Source: Centroscyllium fabricii (taxonomy: Eukaryota). Taken from it: DNA of 64,000 nt. The position numbers and the translations under genes were made by a program. Positions 62,615 through 63,492 of the stretch are shown piece after piece; the stretch's first letter is position 1, and each line of letters starts with the position of its first letter. The notes under the pieces are model-generated. The model ran no database searches. It was not told where the DNA came from and saw nothing but the letters and a program-made list of their open reading frames with translations. Location of the stretch: positions 158,286,001 through 158,350,000 of the forward strand of contig JBNRSN020000010.1 of the NCBI GenBank assembly GCA_051313645.2, read 5' to 3'.

Positions 62615-63492
62615 CAGGTTGTGCACCATTAATCCGCCACGGGCGGGACCAGGCCCGTGCCGGGAAATGGAAAAAACCGGGAGAACGAGGTTGGACACTG
62701 CGCATGCGCACCATTCAAAATGGCCACGCGCATGCGCGCAACATTGTTATTGGCTTGCGCGCGCATGCGCAGATCGTCCAATATTGGCCGCCGCGAAGTT
62801 TTTTCATGGGCTCAGGCTTTTGTGGTGTTCCGTTTAGGTTTTAGGGCTGTCGGGCAGCAGTGAAAGGTCGGGCTTGCAGCGGGGGGGGGGGGAGGTGGCG
62901 CGGGTCGGGCCCAGTAGGTCCGCCTTCCCTCGCCATCGCCGGGTTGCTGCTGCTGCCGTGACGGGAGCCCGAACTCGGGCTAACAGCTGCTGCCTGTTGA
63001 CTGTCCGCCTCAGTCAAGGGGCTCAGCTGCTTGTGCTGAAACCGCAGTCTACTATTAAACACACTAACCCTCAATTGTAAGAGGTCACACTGCGCCAGGC
63101 TGTGGTCCAACGGTTTTAGTTGGGGTCACGGGCTTTCGGAGCGCCGCTTCCCCGTCAGGTGATGGGGGAGCGGCGCTCCGAAGGCACGTGATTTCGAGTG
63201 GGACTTTTGGTCTACAGCCTGGTGCTGTGTGGCTTCTTACAATTGTCCATCCCAGTCCAACACCAGCACCTCCACATCATGGCTTCAATTACACAGCTAT
63301 CGATAAAATAACCGGCGGCCGTTTTGAATGATCTGCGCATGCGCTCTCCGTTCATTGGCGCATGCGCAGATCATTCGCCGAAGCCGAGATGGCGGCTGCC
63401 ATTTTGCGCATGCGCAGTACAGTCGGGGCAATTTGTGCCGGCAGACTGAAGCTGCCGGCTATTCGGGACATGGATTAACGGTGCTCAACCTG
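62615..63492 (+). mobile_element. Pack family copy 10 inserted in Gypsy 3 gag
   Basis: TA|caggttgtgcaccattaatccg ... ggtgctcaacctg|TA; removal plus one TA restores ATG GAT ACC ACA ATG. Confidence 0.93.

Follow-up and report, generated by a model that had tools for sequence, protein, structure and literature searches.

A fold-back repeat near the end of a 64,000-nucleotide stretch of contig JBNRSN020000010.1 from Centroscyllium fabricii (the window) carries A-to-G changes on one strand, and the question it raises is whether an RNA edited by ADAR was copied back into genomic DNA. A first-pass annotation had described the locus as a fold-back of a Penelope-like repeat, and folding confirmed an 85-bp-arm hairpin with arms at 63072-63156 and 63161-63245 (-145.7 kcal/mol, z=-13.8; 0 of 200 shuffles equally stable). 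Arm 1 (63072..63156, minus strand) is a tail-less inverted copy of a Penelope-type terminal repeat. Arm 2 (63161..63245, plus strand) is the sense copy, with a minimal hammerhead core that is broken, and it is followed by an unpaired Penelope ‘tail’ of about 37 nt (63246..63282, plus strand), a term that we use as defined in the available part of PMC11167929. As the reference for the edited columns we took the majority base at each column in 47 unedited arms of the family, of which 4 lie in the window and 43 come from fetched loci; an unedited head-to-head pair at 21519..21860 served as a comparison copy, and more unedited arms lie at 28457-28627 and 30176-30309. Against these majorities, A>G is found at 11 of 27 A in arm 1 and 11 of 23 A in arm 2, G>A is found in neither arm, and there are seven T>C changes, each facing an A>G column, so that the annotation's hand counts were reproduced. 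Its claim that the tail is free of A>G also held (0/9 A); the tail carries one C>T and one G>A, the latter in a column that is polymorphic in the family.

The annotation had pointed to a GC-rich subfamily with the same bases in single arms as the observation that would speak against editing. The derived G or C of each edited column is present in 0-1 of 43-47 family arms, and these columns are A or T in a second comparison set as well, which comprised 30 arms from the closest subfamily. At two positions the window copy departs from its sisters, with T at 63091 and A at 63186 where most sister copies have G and C, which brings the total for the lineage to 23 A>G and 8 T>C. Changes of other types in the window hairpin are 63119 T>G, 63206 G>T and 63211 A>T. 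The pair 63075/63242 is a subfamily variant carried by 10,780 unedited copies, and 63242 T>A was rejected on that ground as a sign of arm-to-arm conversion; 63154/63163 were dropped from every count because the family is polymorphic at both. In public sequencing data, contigs from four runs in three studies span the hairpin, most edited sites without an alternative letter, which excludes an assembly artefact. One run, X9, yielded a 168-base piece that differs at seven positions, among them 63104 and 63112 (both A), and that fits an intermediate stage.

The insert has standard Penelope anatomy: an inverted arm without tail, a tailed arm and a short duplication. The accessible parts of PMC8557442, PMC11167929 and PMC4209133 describe Penelope-like insertions in the same terms, as an inverted 5'-truncated copy with a one-sided 30-40 bp tail and a minimal hammerhead. 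The repeat is abundant, with 125,354 matches to one of its 41-mers. Among its unedited pairs, 21 of 29 rows show an 8-17 bp duplication, and the ends of the arms are concentrated in columns 86-96 and 122-130. The terminal repeat has a predicted minimal hammerhead core, identified by inspection against the available description in PMC4209133; in Rfam it was unmatched at the gathering score. None of three decayed upstream frames matched Pfam, and among the atlas neighbours at 0.93, GIY-YIG occurs in 21-27% of members, which we treat as a lead only. On the minus strand at 61762-62094 (L001:191-523) lies a 110-aa frame, which we take to resemble the C-terminal end of another Penelope-type endonuclease.

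The hairpin is multi-copy: 40 of 438 candidates were scored, and all were 99-100% identical. In the window it sits in an 878-bp MITE (62615..63492), an internal-deletion derivative of a pogo/Tigger transposon of about 3,955 bp, with terminal inverted repeats of about 24 bp (62615-62638 and 63469-63492) and a TA target-site duplication (left 62613..62614, plus strand; right 63493-63494). TA flanks both sides in all 25 loci, out of 30, in which both ends were located. The parent encodes a 605-aa transposase on its minus strand (L093) matching Pfam DDE_1 (2e-44), HTH_Tnp_Tc5 and CENP-B_N, by which the host of the hairpin is identifiable as a pogo/Tigger DNA transposon. The deletion junction (parent positions 457/3535), together with a remnant of the left copy of an 11-bp duplication, lies at 63071..63076 (plus strand). 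The right copy of this target-site duplication, from the Penelope-type insertion, lies at 63280..63290 (plus strand), with a later T>C at 63283; in the older subfamily described below the duplication is perfect. Related MITEs without the hairpin region occupy 10145..10746 (plus strand), 22089-22580 and 35889-36383.

The MITE is itself carried by a young LTR retrotransposon, whose 5' LTR (62328..62588, plus strand) is a 261-bp direct repeat 100% identical to window-equivalent positions 67584-67844, the second LTR lying outside the window. Its gag-protease-RT frame (63493..64000, plus strand) continues past the window, with the gag start broken by the MITE; Pfam on its frames matched protease, RT, RNase H and integrase, and left env unmatched. 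The host element as a whole (L031) has identical LTRs and long open gag-pol frames, with the MITE at its start.

Several further features of the transposon copies were observed. Both subterminal regions (62700-62775 and 63325-63420) hold repeated palindromic GCGCATGCGC motifs, which we presume to be NRF1-like, and stage-specific transversions perfect a palindrome next to them. In long Tigger forms, in a region missing from the window copy (L021:1410-1450), a minus-strand pyrimidine tract with AG lies about 100 bases from the hairpin, which may thus be inside a 5' intron of the transposase transcript. One MITE copy holds a new unedited arm of a related repeat with a short duplication directly upstream of the hairpin (L018:1762-1851), and in five Tigger derivatives (L139, L140, L144, L146 and L137) the hairpin is nearly all deleted and the tail alone is kept.

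An exact 35-base pattern across the edited arm was found at 1,750 places, a lower bound, since the window copy itself fails the pattern. Among the first 100 of these places listed, 8 are of the first-round type and 92 of the later type. A pattern requiring a non-G at 63083 gave 182 copies. We typed 131 distinct Tigger copies; as they were drawn from several searches, the shares of each type are biased. In 69 of them there are 19 plus-strand A>G without any T>C, three are intermediate, and 59 are window-like. The strand bias that the annotation had proposed to check against the family is therefore seen in pure form in the older subfamily (69 copies read), with A>G at 19 of 50 A vs T>C at 0 of 50 T (Fisher p=4.6e-7) and A>G enriched in paired vs tail positions (p=0.02).

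The state before the insertion is preserved as well. Three of ten matches to an empty-site pattern (L138, L141 and L143) are sister elements that lack the insert and have the 11-bp target once; the sole match to an earlier version of this pattern was a filled copy with a small insertion and was rejected. A backbone tree of 101 copies and 563 columns, built with the hairpin left out and rooted on the empty elements, placed the first-round copies (1a, 1b) basally, then L112/L114 (1.5), then the window type (2), with support of 0.99 at each of the last two nodes. One copy, L164, combines a late backbone with an intermediate hairpin. The 19:0 pattern of the older subfamily and the hairpin-free tree together show that the 19 A>G came first and the T>C later. 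The annotation's placing of the event inside this copy thus has to be revised: it belongs to an ancestor of a Tigger DNA-transposon subfamily, and of the 22 A>G, 4 arose after the others.

The order of individual sites was read from a pile-up of Tigger copies. First-round plus-strand A>G comprise, in arm 1, 63091 (now T), 63092, 63094, 63102, 63123-63125, 63130 and 63131, and in arm 2, 63165, 63166, 63172, 63196, 63198, 63200-63202, 63217 and 63232. The later changes are A>G at 63083, 63104 and 63112 and changes to C at 63100, 63145, 63151 and 63152 in arm 1, and A>G at 63183 and T>C at 63186 (now A), 63187, 63215 and 63225 in arm 2. By stage, the second step brought T>C at 63150-63152, 63186, 63187, 63215 and 63225, and the last step T>C at 63100, A>C at 63145 and A>G at 63183, 63083, 63104 and 63112. 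These later changes are far from neutral: one branch, 0.026 substitutions/site long, took up seven T>C, at 7 of 20 G.T sites (p=5e-7). The folding energy of the minus strand moves from about -80 kcal/mol in the first round to between -98 and -116 later, and the plus strand shifts less. Of the first 100 copies listed, 84 have regained A at position 63211; such copies were considered as ancestral and rejected, because all earlier stages have T. We also looked for Tiggers whose fold-back is unedited; the five pattern matches all proved to be first-round copies with one back-change (0/5). In two late-type Tiggers, L079 and L080 (L096, L097), there are patches of first-round bases, a mosaic that suggests conversion between subfamilies.

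We then read edited loci outside the Tigger lineage. With two family A's forced to G in a 35-base pattern and Tigger copies excluded, 43 places were found and all were read; 38 of them have at least two further G among ten free sites, and 35 of 42 loci (one duplicate dropped) have at least five A>G. The pooled spectrum is 316 A>G vs 35 other changes, 8 of these T>C, at loci picked by the two forced G's alone. The search for other same-strand A>G fold-backs that the annotation had suggested was fruitful: where an inverted partner exists, same-strand A>G is present in both arms at 14 of 16 loci and mirror T>C at 2 of 16. Unpaired tails are A>G at 2/102 vs 119/369 for paired positions. Four loci (L230, L234, L244 and L246) have, by eye, their own 12-14 bp duplications. 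In two head-to-head pairs, L263 and L267, the same edits are mirrored, as T>C in the inverted arm and not as same-strand A>G, which suggests one edited template for both arms. At L236, L242 and L245, near locus position 1475-1490, an edited purine run has grown into a longer G homopolymer.

The neighbour preference expected of ADAR, depletion of a 5' G, depends on the scale at which it is sought. In the window hairpin alone it does not reach significance, with edited A at 3 of 10 after G vs 20 of 40 otherwise (p=0.31), or 3 of 10 vs 16 of 40 for first-round edits only, and three ADAR-favoured contexts were left unedited in round one (TAG at 63104, TAT at 63214 and TAA at 63216). In the pooled loci it is plain: 43 of 239 A after a 5' G are edited vs 322 of 683 other A (about 18% vs about 46%). 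Inverted arms alone give 9/49 vs 110/320 (p=0.03), pooled p-values being inflated because sites recur across loci and 5 of 35 come from one carrier family. A 3' G preference is not significant in the pooled loci. The edited-site preferences agree with those of ADAR in the available part of PMC10713624.

The carrier family offers the most direct view of an RNA intermediate. Its transcript consists of a unique flank, the fold-back, a SINE and a microsatellite tail, which we assume to be a tRNA-type SINE and a LINE-type tail. We read 15 of about 22 distinct copies listed (members include L239, L240, L254/L255, L265, L269 and L275-L284; an unedited example is G000:C1044:340898300-340899800). The tail is present in 14 of 15 (L281 stops earlier), the 3' junctions differ, and five copies are 5'-truncated; the family thus displays the hallmarks of retrocopies, namely a common 3' tail, variable 5' truncation and distinct junctions. 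Fourteen of the 15 carry 9-27 G at 36 A/G-variable sites, on the SINE-sense strand and in 14 different patterns, and one (L276) is in the unedited family state. Several are also edited in the SINE stem, with unpaired flanks at background change. Since these retrocopies differ in their edit patterns, an RNA step is implied. Edited transcripts were retroposed into this germline repeatedly, as dozens of independently edited copies show.

Taken together, the pure same-strand A>G of the older subfamily, the ADAR signature of the pooled loci and the differing retrocopies bear out the annotation's proposal that an edited RNA was copied into DNA, and we consider it very probable that ADAR editing was written into this genome by reverse transcription. 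What the copies show directly is the A>G pattern, its host element, the empty site, the sequence in which the changes arose and the independent recurrence in retrocopies; ADAR is the enzyme that we infer to be responsible. An RNA containing both Penelope-type terminal-repeat arms would fold into the 85-bp duplex, in which ADAR would deaminate 19 of 50 paired adenosines and spare the single-stranded tail. A retroelement reverse transcriptase would then read inosine as G, and the copy would enter germline DNA upstream of the Tigger transposase, on the strand antisense to it. Cut-and-paste multiplication of Tigger would spread the edits to more than 1,750 places, and the transposon's master lineage would later acquire another 4 A>G as well as 8 changes to C, each opposite G. 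For the order of insertion and editing we lean modestly towards Penelope machinery having placed an already edited fold-back in Tigger; somewhat less probably, an unedited fold-back was inserted first and Tigger was then carried in a retroposed transcript. Three first-round transversions are unexplained by the A-to-I editing model.

The annotation had also proposed that G.T pairs were later converted to G-C. The order stands, the T>C being later in a tree built without the hairpin, and the cause is contested between two readings, both of which concern the later changes only. To one of them we give about an even chance: DNA-level repair in a folded single strand, which either turned G.T into G-C or let one arm template the other in gap repair or replication, perhaps with selection for pairing and with no second RNA step. 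G.T repair bias and quasi-palindrome correction are DNA-level processes of this kind. All eight later C lie opposite a first-round G (p=1.4e-4) and T>C is found at 0 of 31 A-T pairs, as this reading would have it; it also accommodates pairing-restoring transversions that are beyond ADAR (63145 T>A>C; 63211 reverted to A), some transversions also completing a short palindrome near the left end. Among 14 independent edited fold-backs, T>C is seen at 5/256 opposite G vs 0/314 opposite A (p=0.018), and private hyperedited copies number 0 among the 131 Tigger copies read, so that RNA passage must be rare. Resident copies, however, are unbiased, with private T>C at 6/1235 opposite G vs 6/1718 opposite A (p=0.57). 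Repair must also account for seven T>C on that one short branch, where neither G>A reversion nor tract copying is seen, and it is unable to produce the four later A>G, which lie at Watson-Crick pairs. CpG-context glycosylase repair was considered separately and rejected, G following only 2 of the 8 converted T's.

The second reading, a serious contender to which we assign a smaller chance, invokes further RNA passes on both strands: ADAR acting on A.C mismatches in a minus-strand transcript, the transposase-sense one, would give the T>C, and acting on the plus strand again would give the four A>G, the edits returning either with a retroposed passenger Tigger or through RNA/cDNA-templated repair. 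According to the accessible part of PMC10713624, ADAR favours A.C mismatches. The four later A>G all have the form N-A-G and none has a 5' G, with a 3' G at 10 of 31 remaining A's (chance about 0.007, calculated by hand). The changes are burst-like, site by site, passenger editing is demonstrated in this genome by the carrier family, and Tiggers are found inside LTR elements, the window copy being one such case. This reading nevertheless requires a single master lineage to have gone through RNA two or three times, a rare event of which private cases are seen in 0 of 131 copies; none of the 31 A-U pairs carries a minus-strand edit, and further ADAR passes cannot account for the transversions at 63145 and 63211. 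What remains of our confidence goes to mixtures of the two. That the Tigger lineage took up RNA edits repeatedly and on both strands, edited transposon RNA entering an active class II element several times, is a tentative idea that we think rather unlikely.

For the first round itself, origins other than RNA editing fare much worse. Translesion polymerases that place G opposite T, and ADAR activity on RNA-DNA hybrids, exist, and error-prone DNA synthesis across the hairpin or DNA deamination in an RNA-DNA hybrid might seem suited to the weak neighbour bias of this hairpin and the three transversions alongside. Such origins are largely refuted and we regard them as very improbable: the changes end at the duplex boundary (tails 2/102), sister retrocopies differ in pattern, resident copies never gain clusters, and 5' G is depleted in the pooled loci. 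GC-biased conversion, a GC-rich subfamily or a cDNA assembly artefact is scarcely credible, since although the changes run mostly from AT to GC, the strand asymmetry is 19:0, the derived bases are missing from the 47+30 family arms, and the hairpin is present in 1,750 genomic copies and in contigs of three studies.

On the preferred reading, that ADAR edits were reverse-transcribed into the germline, A-to-I editing, usually held to be transient, is here a heritable mutational source. The locus provides a dated series, from empty site to edited to compensated, and a natural replicate set, in which one transcript left 14 differently edited retrocopies; with these, DNA alone can test ADAR activity on germline retroelement RNA, its past preferences, and whether editing helps or hinders the retroposition of structured RNA. 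It also follows that DNA transposons are no clean negative control in editing scans, and Penelope fold-backs may re-transpose as hairpin RNA. In a literature search mostly outside subscription journals and limited to main texts, we found no report of genome-fixed ADAR-edited Penelope elements, SINE/LINE retrocopies or DNA transposons. L1 RNA was unedited by ADAR1 in a HeLa assay, according to the available part of PMC5224506.

The nearest precedents are the avian retroviruses, for which the accessible part of PMC8586724 cites ADAR A-to-G hypermutation in RAV-1 (Felder et al. 1994) and ALV (Hajjar and Linial 1995). There, as here, clustered A>G from RNA editing was recovered after reverse transcription. 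In contrast to those viruses, the present cases are endogenous and germline-fixed; they recur at dozens of loci, affect both a Penelope fold-back and non-LTR retrocopies, and include amplification by a DNA transposon. A second parallel is APOBEC editing of LTR retrotransposons (Knisbacher and Levanon, PMC4866542; Zaranek et al., PMC2873906), which, in the parts of these papers available, likewise leaves host deaminase traces fossilised in repeats and told by strand bias and a neighbour motif; the change there is G>A from cDNA, whereas here it is A>G from duplex RNA. In the available main text of PMC4866542 the word ‘ADAR’ appears nowhere, and DNA transposons serve as the negative control. With the Penelope-like elements described in the accessible parts of PMC8557442, PMC11167929 and PMC4209133, the insert has its anatomy in common: one arm is inverted and tail-less, the other carries the tail, and the CUGANGA/GAAA core has a palindromic stem III; those parts describe no editing, whereas here, by inspection, the edits break both ribozyme copies. 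Finally, the host resembles other pogo/Tigger elements (Tc1/mariner superfamily) and MITEs in its TA duplication, short terminal inverted repeats and CENP-B/HTH/DDE_1 transposase; unlike other pogo/Tigger elements, it carries an RNA-edited passenger in every successful subfamily that we read.
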